A program made the translations under genes and the position numbers. Under the pieces are notes generated by a model. That model made no database searches, was not told the DNA's origin, and saw only the letters and a list, made by a program, of their open reading frames with translations. A stretch of 36,350 nt of DNA. Origin: a virus. Position 1 is the first letter of the stretch. Every line of letters starts with the position of its first letter. The stretch lies in UHGV virus genome UHGV-0207457; one strand, 5' to 3'. Positions 8,207-25,836 of this stretch are shown in pieces.

Positions 8207-8293
8207 ACAACCCCCTTAAATCTTAATACCCGTATTTATCAAAATATCAACAATTTAATAAATACCTTCATATTTCGTAATGAGGGTAATTAC

Positions 8294-10198: not shown

Positions 10199-10270
10199 TA
10201 ACTCGCCGTCCTTCGGGGCGGCTTACTCCTAAATATTGTTAATCCAATAACAATTAAATAAGGGGTGATT

Positions 10271-10765: not shown

Positions 10766-10775
10766 GGGGTAAATC

Positions 10776-12287
10776 ATGTTTAATCTTTTTCGACGCAATA
10801 AGGCGGTAGAAACTCCAGTTAAAACTAATCACCGCCAGCAACAACAAAAAATCTTTATCGACAAACAAGTAGAAAAATTCCAGAAAGATTTGTCTAAGCG
10901 TTCTTTGGGCTTAGTTGGTGATCGCATTGATGGATCGCTTCAACAAGATACTATCACAGGAACCTTCAATAAGGCTCTCAAATCGAATGGTAAGCGCCTT
11001 TATGACCAGGGTCGTACTCTGGCCTTAAACACTTCCGTAGGCAGTCGCTACACGCAATACATCACCGATATGGTGGTAGGTACTGGCCTAGATCCGAAGC
11101 CGTCAGTTGTTAAATCAAATGGAAAACTTGATAGCGCACTGAATAAGCAGATCGAGAATGCTTTCTGGAAGTGGGCGCAGAATGCTAAACGCTTCTCCCG
11201 CAATGGTCGTTTTAACTTCCGTGAACTGCTGGTAATGGCTGAACGTGAGCGCGTTATGGGTGGTGAGTGCTTCATCGTTTTAACCAAAGAAAACAATGAG
11301 TTAAATGTTTCTATCCTGTCTGCTGATAAGTGCGACTGGTCGCTAAACCGTGAAGTAAGCAAAGACCGTGCGATATATCAAGGTGTGGAGTATGACGTAG
11401 AGACGATGAAGCCCGTAGCATACTGGTTTCGTAAAATCAACCTACTGACTCAGACTTACACAGGTGATAACTATCGCGTAGATGCTTCGCAAGTATGCCA
11501 TTATTATCAACCACTTGCGGCTGAATCTCTGCGTGGTGTGACTGACTTCCTGCCAGTGATTAAGGATATCGCACATCAAGACGCATTCCGCGAAGCTGTA
11601 CTGGTCCAGAAACGAATTTCAGCTAGTAGCATGGCGTTCATCGAGCGTCCGAAAGATTCTGGTGACGATTTTGATACTGGTGAAGATGATGAACAATATC
11701 AAGCGCCGGAAGTTATTCACGATTTCGCGCCGGGTACTATTCAGGAATTGCCGGAAGGGGCAACGATCAAGAGTATTCAATCCACGCAAAGCGGCGATGA
11801 TTTCAATTCATTTAACGCTGGTATGTTCACTAGCATAGCAATGGGTCTTGGCGTGTTCAATCAGGGCTTAACTGGCGATACTAGCCAAATAAATTACAGC
11901 GCTGCACGCTACGGCGAATTACTTCAAAGAACGCGCGTTAAAGCACTGCAAAACAAATTAATTGAAACAGTGGTATTGCCAATTTTCGAAGCGTATCTGC
12001 GTCATTATTCCGCGCGTGGTATTGTTCCGATTCGTATTACTGCAATTCCGCATATTATCGATAACACTACTATTATTCGTCCGCGTTTTGAATCCGTCGA
12101 TCCATTTAAAGACGTAAGCGCCGAGATTGCTTTAATTGATAACGGACTTAAATCACGTACTGCCGTTATATTGGAACGTGGTGATGATCCTGAAAAAGTA
12201 TTCTCAGAGATTCAAGCCGAAAAAAGCGCACTAAATATTATCGTTGATGGCGAGGGTGAAGAAAAAAATTCCCCAGCCGATCCCTAA
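10776..12287 (+). CDS. Portal protein (503 aa), lambda gpB-like
   Basis: Size, acidic C-terminus and position between terminase and the protease-capsid gene; RBS GGGG. Confidence 0.75.
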   Translation: MFNLFRRNKAVETPVKTNHRQQQQKIFIDKQVEKFQKDLSKRSLGLVGDRIDGSLQQDTITGTFNKALKSNGKRLYDQGRTLALNTSVGSRYTQYITDMVVGTGLDPKPSVVKSNGKLDSALNKQIENAFWKWAQNAKRFSRNGRFNFRELLVMAERERVMGGECFIVLTKENNELNVSILSADKCDWSLNREVSKDRAIYQGVEYDVETMKPVAYWFRKINLLTQTYTGDNYRVDASQVCHYYQPLAAESLRGVTDFLPVIKDIAHQDAFREAVLVQKRISASSMAFIERPKDSGDDFDTGEDDEQYQAPEVIHDFAPGTIQELPEGATIKSIQSTQSGDDFNSFNAGMFTSIAMGLGVFNQGLTGDTSQINYSAARYGELLQRTRVKALQNKLIETVVLPIFEAYLRHYSARGIVPIRITAIPHIIDNTTIIRPRFESVDPFKDVSAEIALIDNGLKSRTAVILERGDDPEKVFSEIQAEKSALNIIVDGEGEEKNSPADP

Positions 12288-12333
12288 TAACCAACGGGGG
12301 GCGCAATGCCCCCAATTAATTAAAGGTGATTAA

Positions 12334-14340
12334 ATGCTTAAATTTCGCCGCGAACTTAACGGTTACGGTGGAGTTATTAACGAAGGGCATAACGATCAAT
12401 ACGAATTTGAAATTGCTTTCTCCAGTGAACAGCCTTATCAGCGCCAATTCTGGGATGAGCAAAATCAAGAAATGGTGGTATTAGATGAAATTCTGGTACA
12501 TACACCGGAAGCGGTTGATCTGTCTCGTCTGAATAATAACGCTCCGTTGCTGTTTAATCATAATTTCGATAATCATTTAGGTGTCGTTTGTAACGCTCGA
12601 ATCGATGCGGATAAAGTAGGCCGTGCGACCGTTAGATTCTCTAAGCATGGCACTTTGGCTAATGATATTCGTAATAAAGTCATTGAAGGTACGATGGAAA
12701 AAATTTCTGTCGGTTATGACATTAAAGAATATCACATCGATTATGCCAAAGGACAATTGATTGTTACTAAGTTTGTTCCTTTCGAATTAAGTTTTGTTAC
12801 GGTCCCGGCGGACGATTCGGTCGGTTTAAATCGCTCTCTAAATACTATCACAGTTAATTTGGAGGCTAAACGCGATATGACTAAAGAACAAATCGAAGAA
12901 ATCAAAGAAGAACAAGAACCCGCTCAGGTTGAAGAAACTCCGGTAGAAGAAAATAAAGAATCGGAAGTTGAAGAAACTCAAGAGCGCCAAGTTGAAGAGA
13001 ATAAAGAAGATGAAAATCTCGAAGACGGAAAAGACGCTGAACATCCTGAAAGTGTTGATGATGATAGTTCAACTGTTCGGGAAACAGAAGAAGTAAAAGA
13101 AGAACGTGAAGCCGTTCCGGTTGAAGAAGAAAAAACCGAGGAAGTGGCTGAACGTTCCGAAGAAGACGAATTAGAAATCCGCGAGATCGCGCGGGAACTA
13201 AATATTGACGACGAAGAATTAAAACGCGCATTGGCAATTAAAGACATGACGCCGGAAGCATTCCGCACTAAGGCACTAAATAACATTACCAATGCTCAAC
13301 GTATTAACGAACAAATTAATAAGGAACAAATCATGGAAAAAACTTTCGATCTTAATAACGTAATCCGCTCCCTGGTAGATGGCGACGTGCTCGGCGCTAA
13401 CGAAGCTGAATATTCCGCTATGGCTGCTGGTGCTGCAATGCAGCGTGGTCGTGCTGCTCGCGGTGGCTCTGTATTCGTTCCGGCTGCTGCTCTGCGTGCT
13501 GCTTCCGAAGGTAACACCAAAGCTACTCTGACCGCTGTTACTGATGAAAAACTGCTGACTGAATCCTACATCGAAATGCTGTTGCCTCAGAGTGTTTTAG
13601 GCCGCCTCGGTGTAACCGTTCTGTCTGGCCTGACTTCCCCGATCGCTGTTCCGAAAATGACCGCTTCCAGCGTCGAAGCCTTTGGTTTTGTTGACGAAAA
13701 TGGGGCTGCCCCCGAGTCACATGCGGAATTTTCGAACGTGAAAATGGCTCCTAAGACGTTCGCTGGTGGGAATCCGATCAGCAGAGCTAGCATAAAGCAA
13801 GTTCCCGGCATCGCTACCCTGATCACTGATCACATTAACAAATCTGTTCGGATCAAACTGGAACAACTGATTCTGTCTGACAAAGACAACGAGCGCGGTC
13901 CGGCTGGCCTGGTTAAGCAACTGGTAGACGCGGGTCGCGTTACTAAGAAAGCCGCTTTCTCTTACAAAGACTTCCTGAAAGAAATTGCAGCACTGACCGA
14001 CGCTGGCGTTCCTGCTCAGGCGATCAAGTTTGCGATGAGCGGTGCAACTGCTGCTGAACTGGAATCTACCCTGAAAGATAACGGCGTTTCCGGTTATATC
14101 ATCGAAAACGGCAAACTGGCTGGTTACGAAGTAGTTACTTCTGGTGTTATCCCGGCAGACCACATCGTTCTGGGCGCGTTTGACGGTATCACCATTGGTG
14201 AGTGGGGCGGTCTTGAACTGGATATGGACGACACTACCTACCGCGCACAGTCTGCTATCGTTCCGCGAATCTGGGTAGACCTGGATTATGTTGTTACTCA
14301 GCCGGAAGCTCTGAAAGTTCTTCACATCTCCGCTGAATGA
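12334..14340 (+). CDS. Fused prohead protease - scaffold-like acidic linker - HK97-fold major capsid protein (668 aa); ends in TGA
   Basis: N-terminal ~170 aa carry prohead-protease-like motifs (LLFNHNFDNHLG, ISVGY, ELSFVTVPAD); residues ~180-300 are Glu-rich; C-terminal ~340 aa is capsid-like. Confidence 0.85.
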   Translation: MLKFRRELNGYGGVINEGHNDQYEFEIAFSSEQPYQRQFWDEQNQEMVVLDEILVHTPEAVDLSRLNNNAPLLFNHNFDNHLGVVCNARIDADKVGRATVRFSKHGTLANDIRNKVIEGTMEKISVGYDIKEYHIDYAKGQLIVTKFVPFELSFVTVPADDSVGLNRSLNTITVNLEAKRDMTKEQIEEIKEEQEPAQVEETPVEENKESEVEETQERQVEENKEDENLEDGKDAEHPESVDDDSSTVRETEEVKEEREAVPVEEEKTEEVAERSEEDELEIREIARELNIDDEELKRALAIKDMTPEAFRTKALNNITNAQRINEQINKEQIMEKTFDLNNVIRSLVDGDVLGANEAEYSAMAAGAAMQRGRAARGGSVFVPAAALRAASEGNTKATLTAVTDEKLLTESYIEMLLPQSVLGRLGVTVLSGLTSPIAVPKMTASSVEAFGFVDENGAAPESHAEFSNVKMAPKTFAGGNPISRASIKQVPGIATLITDHINKSVRIKLEQLILSDKDNERGPAGLVKQLVDAGRVTKKAAFSYKDFLKEIAALTDAGVPAQAIKFAMSGATAAELESTLKDNGVSGYIIENGKLAGYEVVTSGVIPADHIVLGAFDGITIGEWGGLELDMDDTTYRAQSAIVPRIWVDLDYVVTQPEALKVLHISAE

Positions 14341-14469
14341 ACTCCTGTAGAACCATCTGAACCTTCCCCCGATTCGGGGGAAGAAAATCTGATTCCTAAA
14401 CCGGAAGAAGATTCCCAGACGGTTACGGCGAAAGCCACAGCTAAAAAACAGCGTAAAACTAAAGAATAA
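14341..14469 (+). other. In-frame 42-codon extension after the capsid gene TGA; candidate programmed readthrough tail
   Basis: No stop from 14341 to TAA at 14467-14469; encodes TPVEPSEPSPDSGEENLIPKPEEDSQTVTAKATAKKQRKTKE; 20-nt core 14422-14441 is identical to 20337-20356. Confidence 0.5.
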
Positions 14470-14474
14470 TAATT

Positions 14475-14502
14475 AGCCCTGCCTAACGGTGGGGCTTTTT
14501 TG
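14475..14502 (+). terminator. Intrinsic terminator after the capsid extension
   Basis: AGCCCTGCCTAACGGTGGGGCT followed by TTTTTT; near-identical copy at 20390-20418. Confidence 0.65.
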
Positions 14503-14531
14503 TATGTAAATACTCCATAAAGGGGGTAACT

Positions 14532-14822
14532 ATGTTCAAATTATCAGAATCACAATTAAATCGAATGTTTAAAAGTGCTCCTGTATTTGTGGTGGAAGGT
14601 GGTAAATCAATTCGTGCTTATCATGAAATTACTACTACCGACGAATCAGGGGTAATGACAGAAACAGAATTTCTATTCTGTCGTGAGGGAGACTTAAAGC
14701 AAGGTGATATTGTCACAGTAGAAAACCAGCGTTTCAAAGTTCAATACGTTAAGCGTAATGGTGATAATACAACTGATTGCTTTATTACTCTGGCAGGGGG
14801 TACACATGCTCGCTATCGTTAA
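14532..14822 (+). CDS. Head-tail connector/adaptor protein (96 aa)
   Basis: Strong RBS AGGGGG; position directly after the capsid gene. Confidence 0.55.
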   Translation: MFKLSESQLNRMFKSAPVFVVEGGKSIRAYHEITTTDESGVMTETEFLFCREGDLKQGDIVTVENQRFKVQYVKRNGDNTTDCFITLAGGTHARYR

Positions 14823-15228
14823 TAATATGCCTAGACTGAAAATCAAACGCGCCTTGCAAGATATTATCGAACAAGATTTAGGTCTGGCTTTAAACGTAGA
14901 ACAAACTCAGCAAGGCTTTAGTGATGACGTGGTTTGTTGGATTACTGGTATGAATGAGACTTACACTAGGGTCCGTGGTGGTAATGCAATGCAAGCTGAA
15001 TGCGTTATCGAAATGCAGTTATATTCTCAGATTCATGAAACGAAAATTCATGAGGGTATTTGCCAGATAATCCAGATTCAGCCGGATAACCCACGATTTA
15101 AAGATTTGGGCTTCTCTATTTCAGATATCACTCCAGTAGCCTCTAATACCGATTATGACGATGATTCTAGTGATGGGGGTATCGTTGGGACACTTAGCCT
15201 TAAATTTTCTTATCTAGCGCGTTTTTAA
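14806..15228 (+). CDS. Head-tail joining / tail completion protein (140 aa)
   Basis: ATG at 14806 after AGGGGG, overlapping the previous stop (track start 14758 is upstream in the same frame). Confidence 0.55.
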   Translation: MLAIVNNMPRLKIKRALQDIIEQDLGLALNVEQTQQGFSDDVVCWITGMNETYTRVRGGNAMQAECVIEMQLYSQIHETKIHEGICQIIQIQPDNPRFKDLGFSISDITPVASNTDYDDDSSDGGIVGTLSLKFSYLARF

Positions 15229-15237
15229 GGGGTAATA

Positions 15238-16071
15238 ATGAATATTACACAAGATAACTTAGATATTTTCACTGGATCACATGTTGAAGTGTCGATCTCT
15301 AACCAGATAGACAATCAGGTCGACTTTTTCGATCCTAGCTTTAGTTCTATGGAGAACATCGCAGCATTCCCTACGCTAACCGAATCCACAGAGATAGAAA
15401 CTCTGGAAGAGTACGATCAGGACGCTACGGGGAAACTTGCTGGTTATCGTAGACTGGAACCGACAACACTCACATTAAACCGTGTTCTTGACGATGAACA
15501 TCAAGCAATGTTGATGAAAGCGGTAGAGGATAAAACACCTTTACGCTTCCGTATGTTCTATGTTGTGAACTCTGGCTATAGTGCTGCTAACACTGGTTAC
15601 TATGTCATCTATGACGCTTATGTCACTAGTCACAAAACCCGTGGCGCAGATAACAAAGCTGTAACACTGGAATTTAAACTTGAACCAGATGGCGGGATTT
15701 TGGCAAGGGGTATAGCGACCGAGGGAAAAATTCTGCGACAAGGGGATTATGGCGTAGGTGCAGGTGTACATCCATTCACGGGTCCAATTGATAGTGATGC
15801 TTTAGCAGGAAACCGTTTCGTAACTTACAAGGGAACTGCTAGCGGTAATCCATACTCAGCCGACACATCATTAATTCACCTTCAAGCTAATGAGCATGGC
15901 GCATGGCAATTAACCTGTAATACTTCCGGTGCACCACGTTTACGTGTCCGAAATATTCAGGAAAACGGTCGCTCTGAATGGATCAAGGTATATTCCACCA
16001 ATGAGAAACCGACACCTAGCGAAATTGGCGCAGTGGCTAAGACTGATAGAATCGACTTCGGTGAGTATTAA
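15238..16071 (+). CDS. Structural protein (277 aa) whose C-terminus shares a KPTPxEIGA module with the tail fibre; possible fibre-attachment/collar protein
   Basis: RBS AGGGG; C-terminal YSTNEKPTPSEIGAVAK parallels the fibre's YHEGDKPTPAEIGAYTK, with ~80% nucleotide identity across the 27-nt core. Confidence 0.6.
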   Translation: MNITQDNLDIFTGSHVEVSISNQIDNQVDFFDPSFSSMENIAAFPTLTESTEIETLEEYDQDATGKLAGYRRLEPTTLTLNRVLDDEHQAMLMKAVEDKTPLRFRMFYVVNSGYSAANTGYYVIYDAYVTSHKTRGADNKAVTLEFKLEPDGGILARGIATEGKILRQGDYGVGAGVHPFTGPIDSDALAGNRFVTYKGTASGNPYSADTSLIHLQANEHGAWQLTCNTSGAPRLRVRNIQENGRSEWIKVYSTNEKPTPSEIGAVAKTDRIDFGEY

Positions 16072-16100
16072 GATTGCTTACCTAAATAAAACATGACGCG

Positions 16101-16134
16101 GGGAGGTTAACGCCTCCCTTATTCCTGTTTTATG
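16101..16134 (+). terminator. Intrinsic terminator
   Basis: GGGAGG-TTAACG-CCTCCC followed by a T-rich tract. Confidence 0.5.
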
Positions 16135-16146
16135 TGAGGTGATTAG

Positions 16147-19100
16147 ATGCAATCAATCCAATTTAAACGCACACAAACGGCTGGTAAAAAGCCGACGCCG
16201 GAACAATTATCACAGGGTGAGATCGCCTTACAACTGGCGGACCATGTGATTTACACCAAAGACAAAAATAATAACGTAGTCCAAATTAGTGTTTCTCCAG
16301 AAAAACACGCTGAACTTAACACTAAAGTAGACAATAACAAAACTAGCACTGACCGTGTTATTGCTTCCAACAAACAAGAGGCCGCTAATAATCTGGCTAG
16401 TGCTAAAGCTGAACTGAATCAGACTATTACCACTAAAGACACCGCAACCAATAAGCGCATTGATGCTACCAACACCACTGTTAGTAACTTAACCCAGACA
16501 GTTACGGCAAATAAAACCGATGCCGACACTAAGATCAATAACCTTACGGGGACCGTATCTGCGAATAAGACCGCAATTGAAAGAACCGTTGCCGCAAACA
16601 AATCTGATGCAGATAGCAAACATGCAGCTTTAACGAAAACGGTCACTGACAATAACACCGCGATTAACAACAAGGTTAATACCACTAACACCAACGTTAG
16701 CAACTTAACTAAAACTGTTACTGCAAATAAAACCGATGCAGATAACAAAATTTCTAGCTTAACTAGCACGGTTGCAGCTAACAAGACAGCGATCGAAAAG
16801 ACTGTTTCCGACAATAAGAAAGACGCGGATACTAAGATTACCAATCTTACTGGCACTGTTAACAGCAACCATACCGCAATTAACAACAAGGTAGACCAGA
16901 ATAAATCTTCTACTGATGCCGCAATTGCAGCCGCTAACAAACGAATTGATGGTATTGAAGGTAGCAATGATGCTCTTTACATCAAGAAGAATACCAATAC
17001 TAAGCATGGTGGGTATCTGTTAAGCAAGACAGCTAACTATTTGGAAGACCAGACAGCGAGAGATCTTAACTACTTTGGCGCTTTCCGTACCAATGGTCAA
17101 GATGGACTCATGGATCTAACTCTTAACGTTCCTCATTCTGCCGGTAAAGCGCACGGTCGCGGATTTACTTTCCGTTATGCGTCTGGTGGATCTCGTGTTG
17201 AAACCTATGGTTTTGATAGAGAAGGACAGAAGAACTTTAGCTATAAAATGTATCACGAAGGGGATAAACCGACTCCTGCTGAAATTGGCGCATATACCAA
17301 AGGCGAAATTGATAAGATGTTTATTAAAAATGTCACAATGTCTGTTCCTTCTGGTAGTGAATCCCGTGCTTATTTCAAGATTGCTACGGCTACGATCCCG
17401 CAAAATGGTCGTATGGTAATGCTTCGTATCTTCGGTGGTAACGGTTATAACGTTAACTCCTATGATCAGGTTGACTTTTTAGAAATTGTTATCCGTTCCG
17501 GTAACAATAACCCGAAAGGCGTTAGTATTGCTGCTTATCGTCGAAACTCTTTGAACGTTCATCAAGTATTTGCGGTTAATACTTCCGGTGATAACTACGA
17601 CATTTACGTTAACTACGGTCGTTATACTGATAACGTTATTGTCGAATATGGTAAGACTAGCGGTGTTTCACTGACTGTTCATGACACCCCAGCTATGACT
17701 AACGTTAAGCCGTCTACTGGTGTTACAGATGGACGTGTTATTACAATGTTCAACACCGAAAACAAAGCCGGAACATTGATGTTTGATAATAACGGACAGG
17801 GAACATATGATATTGTCAGTTTGAATAACGATTCAGGTACTGGAAAAAAATATCTTCGTAAATTCCGTAGTAAAGCCGCAGAAACAATCTGGCATGAAAC
17901 TGTTCAAGGTAACGTATATCGTTTAGCGACTGGCACTACCGATTCTAGCGAAGTTCTACGAATCACTGGTCGCACCATGTTTACTGGTAAAGGCGTATTG
18001 GATGCTGGACAAAACGTTCTTAGATTAGAACGTCCTAGTAACCAATCTAACTACATTGAATGGCAGGACCGCCGCAATGGTGCTGATGCTCGTCAAGGTT
18101 GGATCGGTTTTGGTAGTGCGGAAACAAATAACTTCATGTGGTATAGCGATCATGGGAAAAACTCATTTCAGCTAGAAGCTAACGGTCAATGTTCTATATC
18201 CACTGGTGCAAATAAACTTGTATATACCAATGGTGAATATTGCTCTGGCAACTCTAACGCATATCGTATGGCATTTGGTAACTATGGCGCATTCTGGCGT
18301 AATGATGGTGGTAAAGTTTATCTTCTGTCGACGGATGAAAACGATAAGTTGGGCGGCTGGAATACTTATCGACCATTCATTTACGATCTTACTTCCGGTA
18401 ACGTTCAATTAGGCGGTGATGGTAACGAAGATGCATTAACGTTAGAACGTGCTTCTCGTGCCGCTCGTTTTAGCAATAACGTTTACATTAAGAAAGGTTT
18501 TTTGACTTTTGATGCTGGTCGGTCTGGTTCTCGCGATTATATTCGATTTAATCATTGGGGCGATAGTAATAACGCCCGTGATAACGTCTTGTACATAGAA
18601 GATAGTCAAGGCCGACATTTTAGCACAGAGCGTGCGATGGGTACTGGTGCTCTTAAGGCAAACTTCTTAGGCGATCTTGAAGTCGGTGGTAAGTTTACCT
18701 GGGGTAAAAATACAGCTACATCCAGCTTTAATATTCGTGCATGGGGTAATGATTCTCGTAAGCAAGTATTAGAATGCGCGGATGAAAGTGGTTGGCATTG
18801 GTATACCCAACGTGCTGGCGGTCCGGGCACAAATGAAATTAACTTTAGTGTTAATGGCAGTATTCACTCACAAGGGATTGCAACTTCCGGTAATATTAAA
18901 ATAACTGGACCTGATATTGAATTTCGTCGCACTGGCAATAAGCATATCTGGTTTAGAGATCCGAACGGCTTAGAATTAGGTTTGATGTACTGCGATGATG
19001 CTGGTGTTATCCGCTTCCGTGGTCAGAAACAAGGTCAAACTTGGAAACTTGCTGATAAAATGATTCATCTTGAGGCGGGGACTGTCGGCGGGTCTGATAA

Positions 19101-19731
19101 AGGTTTGATTCGTGGTAATGTTGCTGGTGGTAGCTGGGCTAGCTGGCGTGATCGTTCTGCCGGAATCCTCGTAGACTGTCCGAACTCAACCGATTCCGCT
19201 CATAACATCTGGAAAGCTACTCATTGGGGTAAATATCACATTGCAGCAATGGGTGTGCACGTTCCTAGCGGTACTATCACCAATGCTTTAGCTCGCCTAA
19301 ACGTTCACGACGCCAACTTTGACTTTAACGCTGCGGGTGATTTTAGCGCAGGTCGTAACGGTAGCTTTAATGATGTTTACATTCGCTCTGACTCCCGTTT
19401 GAAGATTAACAAGGAAGAATTACAGGACGGCGCATTAGAGAAAGTAAACTCCCTGAAAGTCTACACCTACGATAAAGTTAAATCTCTTAAAGACCGTAGT
19501 GTGATTAAACGCGAAGTAGGTATTATTGCTCAGGATCTGGAAGAAGTATTGCCGGAAGCAGTAGGTATTCAATCCACCGAAGATCCAGAACAACCGGAAG
19601 CAATTAAGACTATTTCTAACTCTGCTGTTAATGCCTTGATTATTAAAGCTATTCAGGAAATGGACGCCAAATATCAAGCTAAGATTGAAGCATTGACTAA
19701 AGAGATTGCCGAACTCAAAGCAACTAAATAA
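16147..19731 (+). CDS. Side (long) tail fibre, T4 gp37 / lambda Stf-like, with tandem shaft repeats and C-terminal intramolecular chaperone (peptidase S74-type) domain (1194 aa)
   Basis: N-terminus MQSIQFKRTQTAGKKPTPEQLSQGEIALQL resembles T4 gp37; YLRKFRSKAAETIWHETV resembles gp37 YLRKVRAKSGGTIYHEIV; two ~72-aa tandem repeats (~16480-16910); C-terminal SDSRLKINKEE...AIQEMDAKYQAKIEALTKEIAELK is chaperone-like. Confidence 0.85.
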   Translation: MQSIQFKRTQTAGKKPTPEQLSQGEIALQLADHVIYTKDKNNNVVQISVSPEKHAELNTKVDNNKTSTDRVIASNKQEAANNLASAKAELNQTITTKDTATNKRIDATNTTVSNLTQTVTANKTDADTKINNLTGTVSANKTAIERTVAANKSDADSKHAALTKTVTDNNTAINNKVNTTNTNVSNLTKTVTANKTDADNKISSLTSTVAANKTAIEKTVSDNKKDADTKITNLTGTVNSNHTAINNKVDQNKSSTDAAIAAANKRIDGIEGSNDALYIKKNTNTKHGGYLLSKTANYLEDQTARDLNYFGAFRTNGQDGLMDLTLNVPHSAGKAHGRGFTFRYASGGSRVETYGFDREGQKNFSYKMYHEGDKPTPAEIGAYTKGEIDKMFIKNVTMSVPSGSESRAYFKIATATIPQNGRMVMLRIFGGNGYNVNSYDQVDFLEIVIRSGNNNPKGVSIAAYRRNSLNVHQVFAVNTSGDNYDIYVNYGRYTDNVIVEYGKTSGVSLTVHDTPAMTNVKPSTGVTDGRVITMFNTENKAGTLMFDNNGQGTYDIVSLNNDSGTGKKYLRKFRSKAAETIWHETVQGNVYRLATGTTDSSEVLRITGRTMFTGKGVLDAGQNVLRLERPSNQSNYIEWQDRRNGADARQGWIGFGSAETNNFMWYSDHGKNSFQLEANGQCSISTGANKLVYTNGEYCSGNSNAYRMAFGNYGAFWRNDGGKVYLLSTDENDKLGGWNTYRPFIYDLTSGNVQLGGDGNEDALTLERASRAARFSNNVYIKKGFLTFDAGRSGSRDYIRFNHWGDSNNARDNVLYIEDSQGRHFSTERAMGTGALKANFLGDLEVGGKFTWGKNTATSSFNIRAWGNDSRKQVLECADESGWHWYTQRAGGPGTNEINFSVNGSIHSQGIATSGNIKITGPDIEFRRTGNKHIWFRDPNGLELGLMYCDDAGVIRFRGQKQGQTWKLADKMIHLEAGTVGGSDKGLIRGNVAGGSWASWRDRSAGILVDCPNSTDSAHNIWKATHWGKYHIAAMGVHVPSGTITNALARLNVHDANFDFNAAGDFSAGRNGSFNDVYIRSDSRLKINKEELQDGALEKVNSLKVYTYDKVKSLKDRSVIKREVGIIAQDLEEVLPEAVGIQSTEDPEQPEAIKTISNSAVNALIIKAIQEMDAKYQAKIEALTKEIAELKATK

Positions 19732-19738
19732 TAAAAGT

Positions 19739-19757
19739 CGGGGGACTAGTTCCCCCG
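19739..19757 (+). terminator. Stable hairpin after the fibre gene (weak U-tract)
   Basis: CGGGGGA-CTAG-TCCCCCG. Confidence 0.4.
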
Positions 19758-19787
19758 TAATAACAATTTTAATTAAGGGGTAATTCT

Positions 19788-20258
19788 ATGTCTCAATTTA
19801 ATGATATTTTTACTGGTGGTCTGGTAAGTCTGTTCTATCACGCTGATACCACTAACACCGCTCTCGATCACTCCGGTTACGAAGAAATTAAAGAGTGCGC
19901 TGGCTTCCCTGAAACTGCTATCGAGCGCGGTACTGTAGAAGTTAAATCCTTCTCTTCTCAGTACAACCGTAAGCTGGTAGGTAAACTGAATGTTCCTGAT
20001 CTGACTCTTACGGTGAATTACATCCCCGGGGATAGTGTCCATGAGAAGCTCATAAAGGCTGCCGAAGACGGTACTCGAATCCAGATTAAAGTAGAGTATT
20101 ACGTATCAGCGGATAAGCAGACTGGTATTCGCACCGCTTTCAACGGCTTTATTTCTAAAGTTGCTATGAACGGTGGCGATGAAGAAGTTGTAACCAAAGA
20201 GTTTACCTTCGCGGTGGACGGAAAGCCGATCAAACAGGAAATCTTCACTGCCGGATGA
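19788..20258 (+). CDS. Major tail (tube) protein, lambda gpV N-domain-like (156 aa); ends in TGA
   Basis: DLTLTVNYIPGDSVHEKLIKAAEDGTRIQIK parallels lambda gpV [33 protein letters not shown]; placed ahead of the G/T chaperones and tape measure. Confidence 0.65.
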   Translation: MSQFNDIFTGGLVSLFYHADTTNTALDHSGYEEIKECAGFPETAIERGTVEVKSFSSQYNRKLVGKLNVPDLTLTVNYIPGDSVHEKLIKAAEDGTRIQIKVEYYVSADKQTGIRTAFNGFISKVAMNGGDEEVVTKEFTFAVDGKPIKQEIFTAG

Positions 20259-20384
20259 ACTAACGAAGAACTTCCTTTAATAGAACCGGAACCACTACCG
20301 GAACATGAAGCGGTGGTGATTCCAGAAGTAGAAGAAGTTACGGCGAAAGCCACAGCAAAACGAGGCCGCAAGGCTAAGAATTAA
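20259..20384 (+). other. In-frame 41-codon extension after the tube gene TGA; candidate programmed readthrough tail
   Basis: No stop from 20259 to TAA at 20382-20384; encodes TNEELPLIEPEPLPEHEAVVIPEVEEVTAKATAKRGRKAKN; shares the 20-nt core and terminator with the capsid extension. Confidence 0.5.
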
Positions 20385-20432: not shown

Positions 20433-20939
20433 ATGGCAAATGTCGTTAAAGTTCCTGGCTGGATCGGGTCATCTGCTGTATCGGTGACGGGTAAGCGATG
20501 GATGAAAGAAGCACTAACAGCTTTAAAAGTTCCGGCTCCGCGTAATATGTCGGCAATGGCTGGTCGTGGTATGGATACGGTTGTAGCTACTGCTGCATGG
20601 TCTACTTCATTGGGTAATAACTGGGGTGTAACTGCTTCAAACTATCCGGTAACTGACATGCGCGGTAAAGGGTCAATGGAGAACCCCGAAAACGTGGGCG
20701 TAGGGCGTCTGATTGGCGTTATCGTTGGTCAATTCAATGGCGGTACTCCTACTATGGCTGTATATCTCCAGAACGGTAGAGCGGGGAATATAACCGTTAA
20801 TTTGGGTGGTGCTACTGTCACTGTTCCTTATAACAGTATGCAAAGTGGTTTTCATTACTATTGGTTAAGCAATCCTCCGGCTGCTTTCCTCAATAACATT
20901 AAGAAGACTGGCACTAAGCAGACTTTGAAAATCTCTTAA
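20433..20939 (+). CDS. Hypothetical tail-associated protein (168 aa)
   Basis: RBS GGAG; Gly/Ala/Thr-rich; between the tube gene and the chaperone genes. Confidence 0.55.
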   Translation: MANVVKVPGWIGSSAVSVTGKRWMKEALTALKVPAPRNMSAMAGRGMDTVVATAAWSTSLGNNWGVTASNYPVTDMRGKGSMENPENVGVGRLIGVIVGQFNGGTPTMAVYLQNGRAGNITVNLGGATVTVPYNSMQSGFHYYWLSNPPAAFLNNIKKTGTKQTLKIS

Positions 20940-20981: not shown

Positions 20982-21290
20982 ATGAATATTAATGAAATGC
21001 TGAAAGCTCTTTCTCCGAAACGCGAATCTCTGACCATCGGTGGATTCACTTTCTATGCTCGCCCTATGTCAGTAAAAGAATTTAACGAACATGTTTTCAA
21101 TACCGATAAAGATGACCGTGATGAACGTTCGATTCTTCGTTGTATTGAAGATGAAGACGGTAAACCGGTATTTGAATCTATGGAACAAGTTAAGGCACTG
21201 TATACTAACGTCCGCAGTGAATTAATCGGTTTGGTTGCTCAAGCATCATTGATGCAAGATCCGGCGGTAATTGAAAACGAGGTAAAGTAA
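20982..21290 (+). CDS. Tail assembly chaperone, gpG-like (102 aa)
   Basis: RBS GAGGA; small acidic protein directly upstream of the tape measure with a downstream overlapping -1 frame ORF. Confidence 0.6.
   Translation: MNINEMLKALSPKRESLTIGGFTFYARPMSVKEFNEHVFNTDKDDRDERSILRCIEDEDGKPVFESMEQVKALYTNVRSELIGLVAQASLMQDPAVIENEVK
21282..21290 (+). other. Candidate -1 frameshift site GTA-AAG-TAA at the stop codon (tRNA-Lys AAG to AAA slip) giving a G-T fusion
   Basis: The -1 frame opens at 21275 and runs to 21661; its overlap with the G frame is only 16 nt and contains A-AAG immediately before TAA. Confidence 0.35.
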
Positions 21291-21319
21291 ACCCGCTTCT
21301 GTGTTTCTATTTCCGGCAA

Positions 21320-21661
21320 ATGATGAGATCGGGGCTTAGTAAAGATGAAATGGATAATATGCCAATCACTCTGTTTTGGAAATTATACATTTTCGACACC
21401 TACTTAGAACCACAAAGCCCCGCGTTTCATGATATGCAGAATGCGATGTTGCAATATTCCATGTATATGACGTCGCAAGGAATGACTCGAGAAACTGCAC
21501 GCAAACTCAAGCCTAGCCAATTCCAATTAATTAGAGAAGAAAAACTCTTTAAAACTAAAGAAGAACTGGAAGAACTTGCACGCAAGAAAGAAGAAGAACG
21601 TAAAGCGGCAATGCTGAACATGTTTGATACATCTTTGCTTGAGAAACTCAGAAGCGGTTAA
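21320..21661 (+). CDS. Tail assembly chaperone T-frame segment (113 aa from first ATG); probably made mainly as a G-T fusion
   Basis: In the -1 frame relative to the G gene; ends just before the tape measure start. Confidence 0.5.
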   Translation: MMRSGLSKDEMDNMPITLFWKLYIFDTYLEPQSPAFHDMQNAMLQYSMYMTSQGMTRETARKLKPSQFQLIREEKLFKTKEELEELARKKEEERKAAMLNMFDTSLLEKLRSG

Positions 21662-21672: not shown

Positions 21673-24105
21673 ATGACAAAACATATAGTAACAATAGAAG
21701 GGGATAATAAAGGTCTAAGGAGAAGTACCAATGAAGCCGCCGACCTTCTCGATAGTTTGTCCGAAAAGGCAAGTAATATTGATTTTGGTGGTGGCTTATC
21801 TGGTCTGACTGGATCTCTTCGTGGGATCGCTGGCTCTGCTGGTTTGGCTGCTGGTGGTATCGGCTTAGTTGCGACCGCAGTGGTTGCAGCCGCTAAAGCT
21901 GGCGCGGAATACGTTAAACAGTATTCAGAAGTATCTAAGGCGACCGGACTCTCGATTGAATCCCTTCAAAGACTGGAAAAGGAATTTTCTGGTACTGGCC
22001 TAACAGTTGAAAAATTCGGTGATATCAACAAAGACACCTTAGATAAGATGGGTGATGCATGGGCTAACGGTGGTGGTATTGCTGATGACTTAGAATCGGT
22101 TGGTCTTAAGTTAGAAAACTATGCTCACTTCATGACTGATCCGCAAGGTGGTATGAAAGCGGCGATCCAAGTGTTCTATGACATGAAGAAAGCCGGAAAA
22201 TCAATGGCTGAAATCAAGTTCATGATGGAATCTTTAGCCAGTGATTCAAGTCATATGACCAGCCAGCTTGAGAAATATAATAGTGCTCAAGAGGCGATGA
22301 TCGCTATTCAGAATCAATCTGTTAACGTCACCGAAGAAAACGCTAAAAAATATGATAAATTTTCTCAGAATATTAATAAGCTGGAAAATAACCTGAAAGG
22401 CGCAGCCATGACCATTTCTGGTCCTTTGGTTGATAGCTTAAACTGGTTATTTGACTGGTTTAATATTGATTGGGAAAAGAGTTCTCTATTCAGGGCATTA
22501 GATCGACTGAATAAAGAAGGCAAGACCGCAACTGGTGGTATTCTTAACGCCAACCATAAAGACGCTCAAAAGATTATTGACAAGTACAATAAAGAAAAGC
22601 GTTGGAATAATCTGGCAGATTGGGAAAAGGCCGCGATACGTGGTGCTGGTGTCGACCCTCGTACTGCTGGCTTTGATGTTGAAGGATTTAAGAAACGTTT
22701 TGGTGGGTCTTATAAAACTTCAAGTGGTGCTCTGATTGTCGTAGATGCAGGTGAACATCTAACACGCAAGGCAGATCCTAACACTGATTTGACTATACCA
22801 AATAAACCAGTAAGACCAGAATCATTGGGTAAATCTGGCAACGAGAAGAAAGCCGAGGAAGAAGCCAAAAAGAAAGCGGAAGAGGCAGCTAAAAAGGCTA
22901 AGGAAGCCGCAGAAAAAGCACAGAAAGCACGCGAGGATGCAATCAAGCGACTGAATGCACTTGATGTTAAATTGCAAGGGCAAGTTGCAGCGTCTATCAC
23001 TTCTCAAAATAGCCAGTTGCAAAACAGCTTAAAAGATGTGAACGACGCGTTAGCTCTGGGCTTAATCTCTCAGGAAGACGCAGCCGCGAAACGCCAGGCG
23101 CTAATCGATCAGAATACTGAAAACGTTTATAAAATGATGTTGGGTGCTGATCCGATTGATGCTCTGAATGCTTTAACACAATTGCAACAAATCAGGGACA
23201 ACGAGCTAGAAAGCCATAAACGTTTACTTGATGGTAAAGCTATCTCCTACGAAGAATATATGCGTCGTGTGAACGATACCGAGCAAAACTATTCTCAGAT
23301 TGAAAATTCTTTACAGGGAATGGATGGTTATAAAACCAATCAATTAACTAGTGGTTATGATTATCAAGACTCAAATAATCCGTTTGCTAAATTTAATGCA
23401 ATCGATAAAGAGAAATCGGATGCTGAACAAGATTATAAGACCGATAAACTCAAGATTGACGGTATTAATGATCCGGCTAAACGGATGGCTGCATTAGAAA
23501 AACTCAATGAAAACCATCAAAAACGGATGGCTGCAATTGAAAAGAAATATGCTGATGCTCGTCAGTCAATAGCTGATGATATGTATGGCGGTTTTGCTGC
23601 TGCAATGACTCTCTTCGGGCAGGAAAACACTAAAGCTATGCAGATGGCTTTCAATGCTCATAAGGCATTCTCCATTGGACAAGCGACGGTGAACATGTGG
23701 ACGGCTGCTACCGATGCATGGAACGATCCGACCAACGTCACCACAGGTCAAAAAATTGCTGCTGCTGCATTGGCTGTTTCTCAGAACATGGGGAACATCG
23801 CAAACATCAAGTCTACTAACGTTAGCGGTATGGCTCATGATGGTATCGATAACATCCCTCGTGAGGGTACATGGTTGCTTGATAAGGGTGAACGAGTAGT
23901 TGATCAGCGTACTAACGGTGATTTGAAAGACTTCTTATCTGCTCAAAAATCAGGCGGTGGTAACTCTCAGCCGATTGAAGTTAATGCGCCTTTGAACATT
24001 AACGGCAATGTTAATAGCTCAGACAAGATGGTTATGGATGCTATCAAACGTCACGCTAAGTTAGTTGCTCAGGCGGTAGAAGACGCACAGCGTCGTAAGA
24101 TGTAA
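21673..24105 (+). CDS. Tail tape measure protein (810 aa)
   Basis: Size; Gly/Ala-rich hydrophobic N-terminal region; K/E/A-rich coiled-coil (KKAEEEAKKKAEEAAKKAKEAAEKAQKARE); follows the G/T chaperones. Confidence 0.85.
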   Translation: MTKHIVTIEGDNKGLRRSTNEAADLLDSLSEKASNIDFGGGLSGLTGSLRGIAGSAGLAAGGIGLVATAVVAAAKAGAEYVKQYSEVSKATGLSIESLQRLEKEFSGTGLTVEKFGDINKDTLDKMGDAWANGGGIADDLESVGLKLENYAHFMTDPQGGMKAAIQVFYDMKKAGKSMAEIKFMMESLASDSSHMTSQLEKYNSAQEAMIAIQNQSVNVTEENAKKYDKFSQNINKLENNLKGAAMTISGPLVDSLNWLFDWFNIDWEKSSLFRALDRLNKEGKTATGGILNANHKDAQKIIDKYNKEKRWNNLADWEKAAIRGAGVDPRTAGFDVEGFKKRFGGSYKTSSGALIVVDAGEHLTRKADPNTDLTIPNKPVRPESLGKSGNEKKAEEEAKKKAEEAAKKAKEAAEKAQKAREDAIKRLNALDVKLQGQVAASITSQNSQLQNSLKDVNDALALGLISQEDAAAKRQALIDQNTENVYKMMLGADPIDALNALTQLQQIRDNELESHKRLLDGKAISYEEYMRRVNDTEQNYSQIENSLQGMDGYKTNQLTSGYDYQDSNNPFAKFNAIDKEKSDAEQDYKTDKLKIDGINDPAKRMAALEKLNENHQKRMAAIEKKYADARQSIADDMYGGFAAAMTLFGQENTKAMQMAFNAHKAFSIGQATVNMWTAATDAWNDPTNVTTGQKIAAAALAVSQNMGNIANIKSTNVSGMAHDGIDNIPREGTWLLDKGERVVDQRTNGDLKDFLSAQKSGGGNSQPIEVNAPLNINGNVNSSDKMVMDAIKRHAKLVAQAVEDAQRRKM

Positions 24106-24109: not shown

Positions 24110-24156
24110 AAGCCCTCATAGTGATAAATAATCATAAAACTATGGGGGCTTTTTCT
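24110..24156 (+). terminator. Hairpin/terminator after the tape measure gene, overlapping the next gene's RBS
   Basis: AGCCCTCATAG ... CTATGGGGGCT followed by TTTTT. Confidence 0.45.
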
Positions 24157-24717
24157 ATGTTCAAATCCAAGAATATTAAAATCACAGATTTTACTCTTAA
24201 ATCAAAACAACCTTTCTTCAAGGCGCAATCTATCTCCGGTAAGTTCCAGCGTCGCTTTACTGGCATCCATTTTTACGAAGCAGAATTTACCGCGAATTAC
24301 ATGGCTCAGGATATTAACGAAGTAAAAGAATTTGTAGCACGTCACCTTTTTGGTCGTCCTTTTAGTGTGCCACTGTCTTACTTTTCAAAATATACAGGTG
24401 ATGTACGCCAGATGGTAACGGCTGCTGCTGGTACTGCTCGCGGTGGGCGTAAGGTGAGAATCTCCAACTTCACCGGAACACTGAAAGCGGGAACTGTCAT
24501 CCAGTTTGAGAACCACAAGAAAATCTACACGATCACCGAAGACGTGAAATCAGGTGGTGAAATGAAACTCTTCCCTAACTTGCGTCAGAACGTCCTGGCG
24601 GGTGAGGTGATCAAGTATCAGAACGTAGAAGGTGAATTTGTTCTCAAAACTGAAAATATCGATTGGAAGATCGCCCAGATTGGCAAGATGAAATTCGAAT
24701 TAGTGGAGAATGTATAA
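24157..24717 (+). CDS. Minor tail protein, gpM/distal-tail-like (186 aa)
   Basis: ATG at 24157 (track start 24121 is GTG inside the hairpin); first of the M-L-K-I/J series. Confidence 0.55.
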   Translation: MFKSKNIKITDFTLKSKQPFFKAQSISGKFQRRFTGIHFYEAEFTANYMAQDINEVKEFVARHLFGRPFSVPLSYFSKYTGDVRQMVTAAAGTARGGRKVRISNFTGTLKAGTVIQFENHKKIYTITEDVKSGGEMKLFPNLRQNVLAGEVIKYQNVEGEFVLKTENIDWKIAQIGKMKFELVENV

Positions 24718-25370
24718 TGGCAACTATTCAGGAATCATTCAGCAAACTATGCACTAATCTTGACTTCATCGAGGTCTACAACGACCAGACAGGTCAGAAC
24801 GTGTCTAGATTGACGCTACCGCAGCTTTTTTCCACTGGATCGATGTTTCACATTATCGAAGTGATTACAGCGTCAGGGGACGTTCTACGGCTTACTGATG
24901 GGTATTTCGATTTGGACTATAACGGATTTACGTATCTCGCAACGGGTGATTTTCTTCAAATCTCATCGAATACCGAAGAGAAGGAGATCAACAACAACGG
25001 GATCAACGTAACCGTTTCTAACGTTCGCGAAGAATACATTACTCTCATTCGAAACAAGCAATTCGATAAATCAGATGTGAAAATCGAGATGGTGTTCCTG
25101 AACCCCAACACGGGCAAAGTTGAAACCACTTACCCTGTTTTCCGTGGGGTAGTCGATTCCATCGGGATTAACATCGAACATGAAGATGATGAGTGTAAAA
25201 ACGAATCAGAATTTCAGCTTAATAGTATCTGGGAAGTTCTAGATAAAAACGCTCGTAGTCATGCCTCCGATGGTATCCACCGGTCCTATGTTGGAAACGA
25301 GAACGATCTATTCTTCTCTCGTGCCGGGAAGTGGCAAAGCGAGTCGAAGTGGTTTAGCTCTAAGAAATAA
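24717..25370 (+). CDS. Minor tail protein, gpL-like (217 aa)
   Basis: ATG at 24717 overlapping the previous stop (TAATG); position and size. Confidence 0.55.
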   Translation: MATIQESFSKLCTNLDFIEVYNDQTGQNVSRLTLPQLFSTGSMFHIIEVITASGDVLRLTDGYFDLDYNGFTYLATGDFLQISSNTEEKEINNNGINVTVSNVREEYITLIRNKQFDKSDVKIEMVFLNPNTGKVETTYPVFRGVVDSIGINIEHEDDECKNESEFQLNSIWEVLDKNARSHASDGIHRSYVGNENDLFFSRAGKWQSESKWFSSKK

Positions 25371-25416
25371 TCCCTTCTCCCTAAGCCTAGTAAATAACAG
25401 CATGGAGGTATTCAAC

Positions 25417-25836
25417 ATGCTAAAAACTAGGCTTATCACCGATTACATCAATTCTTTAATAGGTCAGGAGTTCGTTCAGGGTGAGAATGATTGCAATCTC
25501 ATTGCATGTAAGATCATCGATATTCTCGCTGGTACTGACCTATATAATTCTCTTTATAAAAAATATTCAACTAAAGAAGAAGGCTTGAAAATCTGCAAAG
25601 AATTAAGCGGGTATTCAAACATCCTTCAACCAATTAAGAAACATTTCAAATTAGTCACTGATGATTTACAGGACGGCGACTTACTGGTCACAGCCCACAA
25701 ATTAGGAAACCGTAATTATTATTCCGTAGTTCCTCATTATTCCGGTTATGGCCTCGTTGAAGAAGATGGTATCTGGATGACCATTCCTGTTTCAGACATT
25801 GACTATGAACAAGTTTATAGATTCGGGGGTGAATAA
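25417..25836 (+). CDS. Tail assembly protein gpK-like with NlpC/P60-type Cys/His motif (139 aa)
   Basis: ATG at 25417 after GGAGG; GENDCNLIACKI (Cys) and VVPHYSGYG (His) resemble the NlpC/P60 catalytic pair; stop overlaps the J start (TAATG). Confidence 0.6.
   Translation: MLKTRLITDYINSLIGQEFVQGENDCNLIACKIIDILAGTDLYNSLYKKYSTKEEGLKICKELSGYSNILQPIKKHFKLVTDDLQDGDLLVTAHKLGNRNYYSVVPHYSGYGLVEEDGIWMTIPVSDIDYEQVYRFGGE

Follow-up and report, generated by a model that had tools for sequence, protein, structure and literature searches.

The G and T genes in this DNA are probably joined by a programmed -1 ribosomal frameshift at GTA_AAG, which would yield the G protein and a G-T fusion as in lambda-like tailed phages, here in an E. 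coli prophage. The window, that is, the whole stretch of 36,350 nucleotides that was analysed, belongs to a prophage family that is found in 53 of 5426 complete E. coli genomes (about 1%) and whose host is E. coli. In the proposed mechanism, most ribosomes would read G (102 amino acids) and terminate at the TAA at 21288-21290, and a minority would move back by one base at GTA_AAG (21282-21287), where the single tRNA-Lys (mnm5s2UUU) would re-pair from AAG to the overlapping AAA; reading would then resume with GTA AAC CCG and give a 226-amino-acid G-T fusion with a lambda-gpT-like C-terminal part. The shift itself, its efficiency and its route are what we infer from the DNA and its relatives. 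The locus is most likely a routine and unannotated case of a frameshift that is well known from phages. RefSeq and GenBank carry two unrelated hypothetical proteins (PGAP), with T shortened to an internal ATG equivalent to 21359, and the GT fusion should be annotated with ribosomal slippage at 21287. Gene finders and frameshift predictors that demand X_XXY_YYZ would miss such sites, and PRFect has been reported to miss sites with unlisted motifs.

Anatomy and identity of the G and T genes

The features of the locus are as follows.

19788..20258, + strand: tail tube (major tail) gene
20433-20939: gp38-like adhesin gene, inserted between the tube gene and G
20982..21290, + strand: gene G, tail assembly chaperone of 102 amino acids (ORF and translation; PHROG 344), with its TAA stop at 21288-21290
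21272..21274, + strand: TGA of the -1 (T) frame, bounding the 16-nt overlap on its 5' side (sequence)
21281..21287, + strand: imperfect slippery heptamer G_GTA_AAG, core A_AAG at 21284-21287, the sole in-frame A_AAG of the overlap
21287..21319, + strand: linker VNPLLCFYFRQ, T-frame coding and upstream of any start codon (sequence and substitution pattern)
21287..21661, + strand: T-frame part of the G-T fusion, first -1-frame codon GTA at 21287-21289, stop TAA at 21659-21661
21288..21290, + strand: TAA stop of G, directly 3' of the slip codon, a candidate stimulator (sequence; 16-lineage comparison)
21673..24105, + strand: tape measure protein gene

The genes thus named stand in the order tube, gp38-like insert, G, T and tape measure. 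The tube gene matches PHROG 158 (E=2.3e-21), reaches Pfam Phage_TTP_11/12 near threshold and bears the RefSeq name 'phage tail tube protein'; the tape measure gene matches PHROG 13674 (E=4.1e-64). Between them, the G protein of the window matches PHROG 344, 'tail assembly chaperone' (E=3.3e-7), and scores 21.5 bits against Pfam Phage_TAC_13, below the cut-off of 28.8, a family that is matched by 11 of 13 family members. The T protein of the window scores 21.7 bits (E=2.8e-4) against Pfam Phage_tail_T, the lambda gpT family, below the cut-off of 25.9, and 7 of 13 relatives match that family with a best E of 5e-6. The search of solved structures gave a chance match only (E=0.55). A large protein database searched with the GT fusion gave no match, although RefSeq contains the G protein. 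The preliminary description had taken the two genes for a G/T tail-chaperone pair, and this identification is supported by the related lineages, which keep NNA_AAG together with a T-frame peptide conserved from there.

According to the ORF lists and translations, T is read at -1 relative to G in a frame that stays open over 21275-21661, and the two overlap by 16 nt, at 21275-21290. Across the overlap the G-frame codons are GAA AAC GAG GTA AAG TAA, and four heptamers could feed the open -1 frame, namely T_GAA_AAC, A_AAC_GAG, C_GAG_GTA and G_GTA_AAG; none of these four possible heptamers of the 16-nt overlap is a canonical X_XXY_YYZ. In these respects the preliminary description, which had reported a 16-nt overlap with the -1 frame opening at 21275, the end of G at 21290 and no classic heptamer, is borne out by the sequence, the ORFs and the translations. 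Gene G has a good Shine-Dalgarno sequence of its own (AGAGGAAA, -6.0 kcal/mol). The G-T fusion, constructed as 20982-21287 plus 21287-21658, is 226 amino acids long, and its junction reads ENEVK followed by VNPLLCFYFRQMM, so that its translation contains the junction peptide ENEVK-VNPLL just as had been predicted.

Conservation of the proposed slip site and coding of the T frame

To place the site in its family, we compared 16 diverged G/T lineages with G identities of 24-100%, which are not phylogenetically independent; some of the relatives are prophage or metagenome fragments, and a scan of genome contigs contributed 2 loci. A DNA search of phage records gave no match, and a tblastn search of phage records matched only Escherichia phage DCP80. 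Every one of the 16 lineages has exactly one in-frame NNA_AAG in its overlap, no more than 2 codons from the aligned Lys, in the forms G/A_GTA_AAG, G/A_GAA_AAG, A_AAA_AAG and T_TTA_AAG. Canonical heptamers at or next to the aligned site are found in 4 of the 16 (T_TTA_AAG in DCP80; A_AAA_AAG in L076, L077 and L090). In the structural ORFs of the window, in-frame A_AAG makes up 0.34% of codons (26/7718), and the chance of one in-frame A_AAG in a 4-codon overlap is about 1.3%. A_AAG is the only shift-prone element of the overlap in the window, which, together with its retention within an in-frame NNA_AAG in all lineages, supports its earlier proposal as the slip site.

E. coli reportedly reads AAG with a single tRNA-Lys species (mnm5s2UUU), as Tsuchihashi and Brown are said to have described in 1992 and as PMC4066793 discusses, and this tRNA, with the anticodon mnm5s2UUU, pairs better with AAA than with AAG. 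At the core of the window heptamer, tRNA-Lys would move from AAG (21285-21287) to AAA (21284-21286). Among tetramers, A_AA.G shifts most readily in E. coli (PMC4066793), re-pairing from AAG to AAA is energetically favourable and mismatches in the P site are tolerated (PMC6787027). The preliminary description had implied a less common mechanism; the motif is less exotic than that, as NNA_AAG motifs are known and G_GU has been described as the X_XX part (PMC5009743). The signal would be of the NNA_AAG hexanucleotide or the A_AAG tetranucleotide type, with an imperfect re-pairing of the P-site codon from GUA to GGU and no 3' RNA structure. In an IS3 reporter, A_AAG without a stimulator gave 0.147% (mean of the motif constructs) versus 0.112% for no motif, barely above background (PMC4066793); therefore, the efficiency in the window may be very low unless the stop codon, the imperfect P-site pairing or the upstream element GGCGGT helps. 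As judged by conservation, the determinant shared by the family is the known E. coli NNA_AAG/A_AAG motif, with tRNA-Lys predicted to re-pair from AAG to AAA, and we lean towards a family-wide route of slippage tied to tRNA-Lys on AAG, as at other NNA_AAG sites.

The T frame evolves as coding sequence from the slip site on. When the GT fusions are joined at the aligned Lys, they align without a gap over the junction, and conservation of the T-frame peptide sets in at the slip site, upstream of any start codon, with the motif (N)WAKxFxYRxxxRRGL or NPLLxFYFRQMMRxGL preceding the first ATG. In L068, L069, L074 and DCP80 the first Met lies deep within the conserved T domain, and L018 carries a 3-nt insertion that preserves the T frame. 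The linker of the window (21287-21319) has no ATG, GTG or TTG in the T frame. It contains 15 sites that vary over 8 distinct variants, and 10 of these sites fall on third codon positions of the T frame (P=0.0085); its ratio of synonymous to non-synonymous changes is 10:6 in the T frame versus 4:11 and 2:13 in the other frames.

The neighbouring stop codon, other candidate stimulators and alternative readings

The stop codon is adjacent to AAG in 8 of the 16 lineages, comes one codon later in 5 (AAG AAA/AAC TAA or AAG CCC TGA) and follows after 4 or more codons in 3. In the last three, L132 (G_GTA_AAG AAA), L072 (A_GTA_AAG GAA) and DCP80 (T_TTA_AAG CCG), it is 4-11 codons off, and in DCP80 it is 10 codons away. 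The near-identical clade uses all three stops, including TGA in L081 and TAG in L018 beside TAA, and because all of them occur there, no release-factor specificity is visible. Across the 16 lineages we found no correlation between the weakness of the heptamer and the adjacency of the stop: an adjacent stop is present in 3 of the 4 canonical-heptamer lineages, and the lineages with distant stops have both canonical and non-canonical heptamers.

These distances bear on the route given in the preliminary description, in which the P-site tRNA-Lys slips while the ribosome pauses on TAA. Its slip site, A_AAG, holds, and a dependence on TAA is not established by a stop that is adjacent in half of the lineages. 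As a main route, peptidyl-tRNA-Lys on AAG would slip to AAA while a release factor slowly decodes TAA, and Val-tRNA would then read GTA; we consider this shifty-stop route possible, with the balance against it. In the window AAG and the stop are neighbours, in 13 of the 16 lineages the stop falls within one codon of AAG, and an 11-nt core of the window, GTAAAGTAAAC, recurs unchanged in a relative with a 60%-identical G. A weak heptamer and an absent 3' structure also fit a one-tRNA route, for which a vacant A site is needed and structure is not (PMC6771820), as does the near-background activity of A_AAG alone when it lacks a stimulator (PMC4066793), and stop-proximal effects on -1 sites are documented for PEMV (PMC5009743). 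However, L132, which is about 70% identical, shares G_GTA_AAG and has an intact T frame, yet its next codon is the sense codon AAA and not a stop, L072 continues with GAA, DCP80 has its stop 10 codons off, and in the five lineages with one intervening codon a ribosome with AAG in its P site has AAA, AAC or CCC in its A site. Moreover, the stop does not track heptamer weakness, because L076, L077 and L090, with the canonical A_AAA_AAG, have an adjacent stop as well, and the identity of the stop varies among TAA, TGA and TAG in near-identical relatives. The junction peptide ENEVK-VNPLL, if sought by mass spectrometry, cannot separate the two routes because both yield the same protein.

In 13 of 16 lineages, 0-1 codons separate the stop from the slip codon, versus a mean distance of 26-36 nt between slip site and stop in phage tail-chaperone frameshifts (PMC10885494). 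This far closer placement hints that the stop does matter and that the shifty-stop route is perhaps underweighted. We are doubtful that a zero-frame stop at 0-1 codons is a selected stimulator, acting by termination pausing or by a PEMV-like effect and replacing P-site re-pairing and 3' structure. If it were, the G:GT ratio would be coupled to release-factor activity and to the modification of the host tRNA-Lys, the family would represent a stop-stimulated -1 class of tail-chaperone signal, and L132, L072 and DCP80 would be escapees from that dependence. Under the slippage on AAG that we favour, the adjacent stop appears common across the family but not required, and in this prophage it would at most act as an optional enhancer by opening a one-tRNA P-site route as well. 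The family forms a natural allelic series at one homologous site, with GUA, GAA, AAA and UUA as P-site codons, canonical and imperfect heptamers, and stops at +0, +1, +4 and +10/11 codons. Such a series would allow a clean test of the neighbouring stop versus P-site re-pairing in a -1 shift on A_AAG that involves no RNA structure.

Two further sets of features concern stimulation of the shift and independent starts of T.

21263..21268, + strand: SD-like GGCGGT, 12 nt 5' of the heptamer at a dnaX-like spacing, a possible lineage-specific enhancer (duplex -6.4 kcal/mol)
21320..21361, + strand: T-frame ATGs at 21320, 21323, 21350 and 21359 (sequence)

The region 3' of the slip site in the window folds worse than shuffled sequence (MFE z-score +1.55), and neither 7 close nor 16 diverse sequences gave a consensus structure. 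Some relatives have hairpins 37-55 nt downstream, which were rejected as a 3' stimulatory structure, being too distant, weakly significant (z about -1.7) and non-homologous. On the 5' side, GGCGGT could pair with 16S rRNA and boost the -1 shift in this prophage in the manner of dnaX, where, reportedly in work of Larsen in 1994, the -1 shift is promoted by a spacing of about 10-14 nt. Its duplex of -6.4 kcal/mol is the strongest within the body of gene G. However, many relatives with 98-99% identity have lost the element through a synonymous GCG>GCA change (leaving -2.3 kcal/mol), a comparable SD-like element occurs only in L023 and L055 among the other lineages scored, and a second SD-like sequence, GAGGT, abuts the slip codon, a spacing at which an SD-like element would favour +1 and not -1. 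We regard a contribution of GGCGGT as unlikely.

Separate synthesis of T from an ATG of its own, at 21320 or at the 21359 of RefSeq, possibly by termination-reinitiation after the stop of G, is very improbable. The first ATG, which the ORF list places at 21320 as the preliminary description did, is just 30 nt past the G stop, three more follow at 21323, 21350 and 21359, and PGAP gives two separate hypothetical proteins. However, independent starts at these ATGs are unlikely because the scored ones (21320, 21323 and 21359) lack a usable Shine-Dalgarno sequence (-1.6 to -3.1 kcal/mol); the neighbouring genes that start with ATG have SD energies of -5.9 to -12.7 kcal/mol. A separate T is also at odds with the 33 nt before the first ATG, which evolve as T-frame coding sequence with no start codon, with a conserved T-frame peptide that begins at the slip site in all lineages, and with a first Met well inside the conserved domain in L068, L069, L074 and DCP80, and it leaves the 16/16 conservation of A_AAG unexplained.

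An earlier shift at T_GAA_AAC (21272-21278), with tRNA-Asn moving from AAC to AAA, has GAAAAC at the 5' edge of the overlap and a -1 frame open from 21275 in its favour but hardly any likelihood, given that AAC is AGC in the near-identical L084 and L087, that the run is missing from L055, L064 and the more distant lineages, that motifs ending in AAC shift inefficiently in E. coli (PMC4066793; PMC6787027), and that P-site GAA would re-pair poorly onto UGA. Transcriptional slippage was rejected in the window, whose A run is only 3 long; it could play a part in the three lineages with an A7 run, L076, L077 and L090. A +1 or -2 shift is unneeded, given the -1 position of T and the gap-free alignment of the fusion.

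Comparison with known frameshift systems

The closest likeness is to lambda gpG/gpGT, whose programmed -1 frameshift was reportedly described by Levin, Hendrix and Casjens in 1993 and by Xu, Hendrix and Duda in 2004, 2013 and 2014. In both, the tube and tape measure genes flank a pair of overlapping ORFs, of which the second is in the -1 frame and lacks a separate start signal; the C-terminal part appears to be of the Pfam family of lambda gpT, the A-site AAG is read by tRNA-Lys, and a 3' structure is unneeded. The lambda heptamer, which we take to be G_GGA_AAG, differs by one base from the G_GTA_AAG of the window. Thiolation of tRNA-Lys reportedly affects lambda GT. In contrast to lambda, the window heptamer is imperfect, with a P-site GUA that cannot re-pair cognately with GGU, and no sense codon of G follows its slip codon, which gives a 16-nt overlap and an adjacent stop. 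The ratio of G to GT in lambda is given as 30:1 in PMC5009743. The window also differs from lambda in the gp38-like adhesin gene that sits between the tube gene and G.

Bacterial NNA_AAG and A_AAG motifs resemble the proposed signal of the window: one tRNA-Lys moves from AAG onto AAA, and the 5' codon yields only its third-base A. Examples are reportedly CCA_AAG of IS3 and CGA_AAG of B. subtilis cdd, in work ascribed to Licznar in 2003 and Sharma in 2014. The known NNA_AAG cases depend on a stimulator, a pseudoknot in IS3 and an upstream SD in cdd. Unlike these, the window family has no conserved 3' structure or 5' SD, and its sole recurrent neighbouring feature is the zero-frame stop.

Slippage of one tRNA in the P site at a shifty stop or hungry codon is said to go back to Weiss in 1987. 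With that route, seen for dnaX and HIV (PMC6771820), the window shares a slippery P-site codon beside a slow A-site codon and no need of structure, but the stop is adjacent in only 8 of the 16 lineages of the family and the close relative L132 has a sense codon there. Finally, phage T7 gene 10 (G_GUU_UUC) differs in its A-site codon and tRNA, UUC and Phe, and, as a capsid gene, in its biological role, but it shares with the window an imperfect heptamer that begins with G_GU and is read by E. coli ribosomes (PMC5009743).

Neighbourhood and anatomy of the G/T overlap

The two tail assembly chaperone frames lie in a tail module whose genes were assigned as follows.

16147-19731, T-even-like long tail fibre (PHROG 1699, Gp34_trimer, Peptidase_S74)
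19788-20258, tail tube (PHROG 158)
20433-20939, gp38-like adhesin (PHROG 1121, Pfam Gp38_N)
20982-21290, G, 102 aa (PHROG 344 'tail assembly chaperone', E=3.3e-7)
21275-21661, T frame (Pfam Phage_tail_T, E=2.8e-4, under the curated cut-off, as is the Pfam match of G)
21673-24105, tape measure (PHROG 13674, E=4e-64)

Among 13 diverged fusions of G and T (GT), Phage_TAC_13 is matched by 11 and Phage_tail_T by 7 (best E 5e-6). The tube gene and G are usually neighbours. In the window, a receptor-binding pair of T-even type sits within a siphovirus tail module that resembles lambda. One member, the gp37/gp34-like long tail fibre, carries the intramolecular chaperone domain Peptidase_S74; the other, the gp38-like adhesin, is split from it by the tube gene and placed between that gene and G. 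Past the tape measure, three successive ORFs are listed (24121-24717, 24663-25370 and 25261-25836) with mutual overlaps of 55 and 110 nt; the first begins with a GTG that has no Shine-Dalgarno (SD) sequence (-0.1 kcal/mol), and the real starts of the ORFs in 24121-25836 probably lie further downstream.

Read directly, the 3' end of G is ATT GAA AAC GAG GTA AAG TAA, and the T ORF follows in the -1 frame. A TGA at 21272-74 closes that frame, which then stays open from 21275 up to the stop at 21659-61, so that the overlap measures 16 nt. Of the four heptamers through which a ribosome could enter the open -1 frame, none fits X_XXY_YYZ, and the window has the G/GT architecture without a canonical heptamer. 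The overlap contains a single in-frame A_AAG (21284-87, within G_GTA_AAG), whose Lys codon is the final sense codon of G; the earliest T-frame ATG is 21320. The preliminary description, which reported a 16-nt overlap, no classic heptamer and only A_AAG at the stop, agrees with this reading.

Conservation of the putative slip motif and of the T frame

By scanning IMG/VR, GTDB genomes and metagenomes, we obtained 16 lineages whose G is 24-100% identical to that of the window. Every one has exactly one in-frame NNA_AAG in the G/T overlap, 0-2 codons from the aligned Lys.

Slip motif and following codons in the 16 lineages (L-numbers denote loci of relatives)
Window clade, L055, L064: G_GTA_AAG TAA
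L066: A_GTA_AAG TAA
L070 group: G_GAA_AAG TAA
L076, L077 (Buttiauxella), L090: A_AAA_AAG TAA
L068: G_GAA_AAG AAA TAA
L069, L073: G_GAA_AAG AAC TAA
L074: A_GAA_AAG AAA TAA
L098: A_GAA_AAG CCC TGA
L132: G_GTA_AAG AAA, stop 4 codons further
L072: A_GTA_AAG GAA, stop 11 codons further
Escherichia phage DCP80: T_TTA_AAG CCG, stop 10 codons further

The P-site codon (GUA, GAA, AAA, UUA) varies freely, as does the first base of the heptamer (G or A), and across the 16 lineages only A_AAG is fixed. In the structural ORFs of the window (21 ORFs on the + strand, from 5584 to 31620), in-frame A_AAG makes up 0.34% of codons, about half of the expectation from AAG codon frequency and third-position A frequency (26 observed, ~47 expected); in this small sample, the scarcity would fit a shift-prone tetramer being avoided. 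Because A_AAG persists in all lineages despite saturated synonymous sites and this 0.34% background, its presence is not due to chance.

The T frame is likewise maintained from the slip site onward, evidence for T being translated through that site rather than started independently. GT fusions joined at the Lys align without gaps across the junction, and the motif immediately after it (NPLLxFYFRQMMRxGL / NWAKxFxYRxxxRRGL) is conserved upstream of the earliest ATG, while in L068, L069, L074 and DCP80 the first Met lies deep within the conserved T domain. In the window, the 33-nt linker that separates ATG 21320 from the slip codon lacks any start codon; among the 8 distinct linker variants, 10 of 15 variable sites are T-frame third positions (binomial P=0.0085), and single-step changes are synonymous to non-synonymous at 10:6 in the T frame vs 4:11 and 2:13 in the others. 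A 3-nt insertion in L018 (GTA AAG TAG TAA ACC) retains the T frame. For the three T-frame ATGs scored (21320, 21323 and 21359), duplexes with the anti-SD come to between -1.6 and -3.1 kcal/mol, vs -5.9 to -12.7 for neighbouring ATG-start genes.

Several loci were atypical. T ends early in L008 (stop at 3584, shortened to ...FKTQG), G ends at codon 74 in L031, and G diverges or breaks part-way in L031 and L075, the contig of the latter ending soon after; these truncations are likely decayed prophages or insertions. L078 (JBEBQJ010000175.1, a MAG named Sphingobacterium yanglingense) has a G/T junction identical to the prophage loci L070 and L071, and this 10-kb contig probably entered the Bacteroidota MAG as a binning contaminant.

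Candidate stimulators and the possible route of slippage

The 93 nt past the slip site of the window are less stable than shuffled sequence (z=+1.55), and RNAalifold gave no meaningful consensus in 7 close relatives and zero pairs in the 16 lineages; hairpins in some relatives begin 37-55 nt downstream and are non-homologous and non-significant. On the 5' side, the SD-like GGCGGT (21263-21268) lies 12 nt from the heptamer, a dnaX-like spacing, and its -6.4 kcal/mol is the gene-body maximum, but a synonymous GCG>GCA removes it in relatives 98-99% identical, and, of the other lineages scored, just L023 and L055 carry anything comparable. A second SD-like element, GAGGT (21279-21283), abuts the slip codon and, like GGCGGT, is not conserved in close relatives. 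The zero-frame stop is the sole recurrent feature beside the slip site.

A_AA.G is the most shift-prone tetramer in E. coli, reaching 5.6% with the IS3 pseudoknot and staying close to background without a stimulator (PMC4066793). At NNA_AAG, tRNA-Lys re-pairs, helped when the 5' tRNA gives up its third base, and G_GU is a known imperfect heptamer start, as in T7 gene 10 (PMC5009743). For tRNA-Lys(mnm5s2UUU), re-pairing from AAG to AAA is energetically favourable, and P-site mismatches reduce -1 shifting, not to zero (PMC6787027). Two kinetic routes are described, two-tRNA slippage in translocation and one-tRNA P-site slippage with a vacant A site, for which structure is unnecessary (PMC6771820). 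From the sequence comparisons, it is quite probable that a programmed -1 shift at GTA_AAG produces a 226-aa G-T fusion.

The zero-frame stop directly follows the slip codon in 8/16 lineages, is one codon further in 5/16 and at least 4 codons away in 3/16. The near-identical clade uses all three stop codons (TAA; TGA in L081; TAG in L018), and L132, whose G is ~70% identical to that of the window, keeps G_GTA_AAG unchanged before a sense AAA with the T frame intact. Because half of the family has no adjacent stop, and in five lineages the A site would be occupied by an ordinary sense codon, we lean toward slippage that would be tied to tRNA-Lys on AAG and independent of the stop. These same counts weigh against the route of the preliminary description, in which P-site tRNA-Lys re-pairs during a pause on TAA: its A_AAG slip site is supported, whereas the stop pause would be possible but not required. 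A stop 0-1 codons away in 13/16 lineages, against slip-to-stop distances averaging 26-36 nt in other tail-chaperone sets (PMC10885494), is suggestive, and we regard stop-paused slippage as a live, if rather unlikely, contributor in the window prophage. Both routes predict the same protein, ...ENEVK|VNPLL....

Annotation and comparison with known systems

This element, an E. coli prophage, occurs in 53 of 5426 complete genomes. RefSeq lists two separate hypothetical proteins, G and a T shortened to begin at the counterpart of ATG 21359, and annotates no slippage; the 226-aa fusion as a protein homology query gave no match at E<=0.001, although RefSeq has the G protein WP_001695775.1. In E. coli NZ_CM136169.1 and NZ_CP071263.1, a small ORF under the match is called 'cytochrome', almost certainly a mis-annotated phage tail gene. 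Among deposited phages, a relative occurs only in DCP80, where it is likewise unannotated. That 141-kb record (PQ671644.1) is classed Straboviridae/Gaprivervirus, and its stretch 7777-20342, with all genes labelled hypothetical, holds a G/T/tape-measure module of lambda-like type in which the slip site is a canonical T_TTA_AAG; the record's taxonomy or assembly looks doubtful.

The probable G/T frameshift of the window is unannotated and of a mechanism type already known; the stop-stimulated reading, if true, would be a modest variant of that type. Its value lies in a corrected G/T annotation and in a natural allelic series for telling P-site re-pairing from stop-codon effects. The slippery sequence of lambda, G_GGA_AAG, is one base off G_GTA_AAG. 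Known A_AAG sites use stimulators, whereas the window site has none of those; it would work as do the NNA_AAG sites in IS3 and in B. subtilis cdd, and as does lambda G/GT, where the G:GT ratio is 30:1 (PMC5009743).
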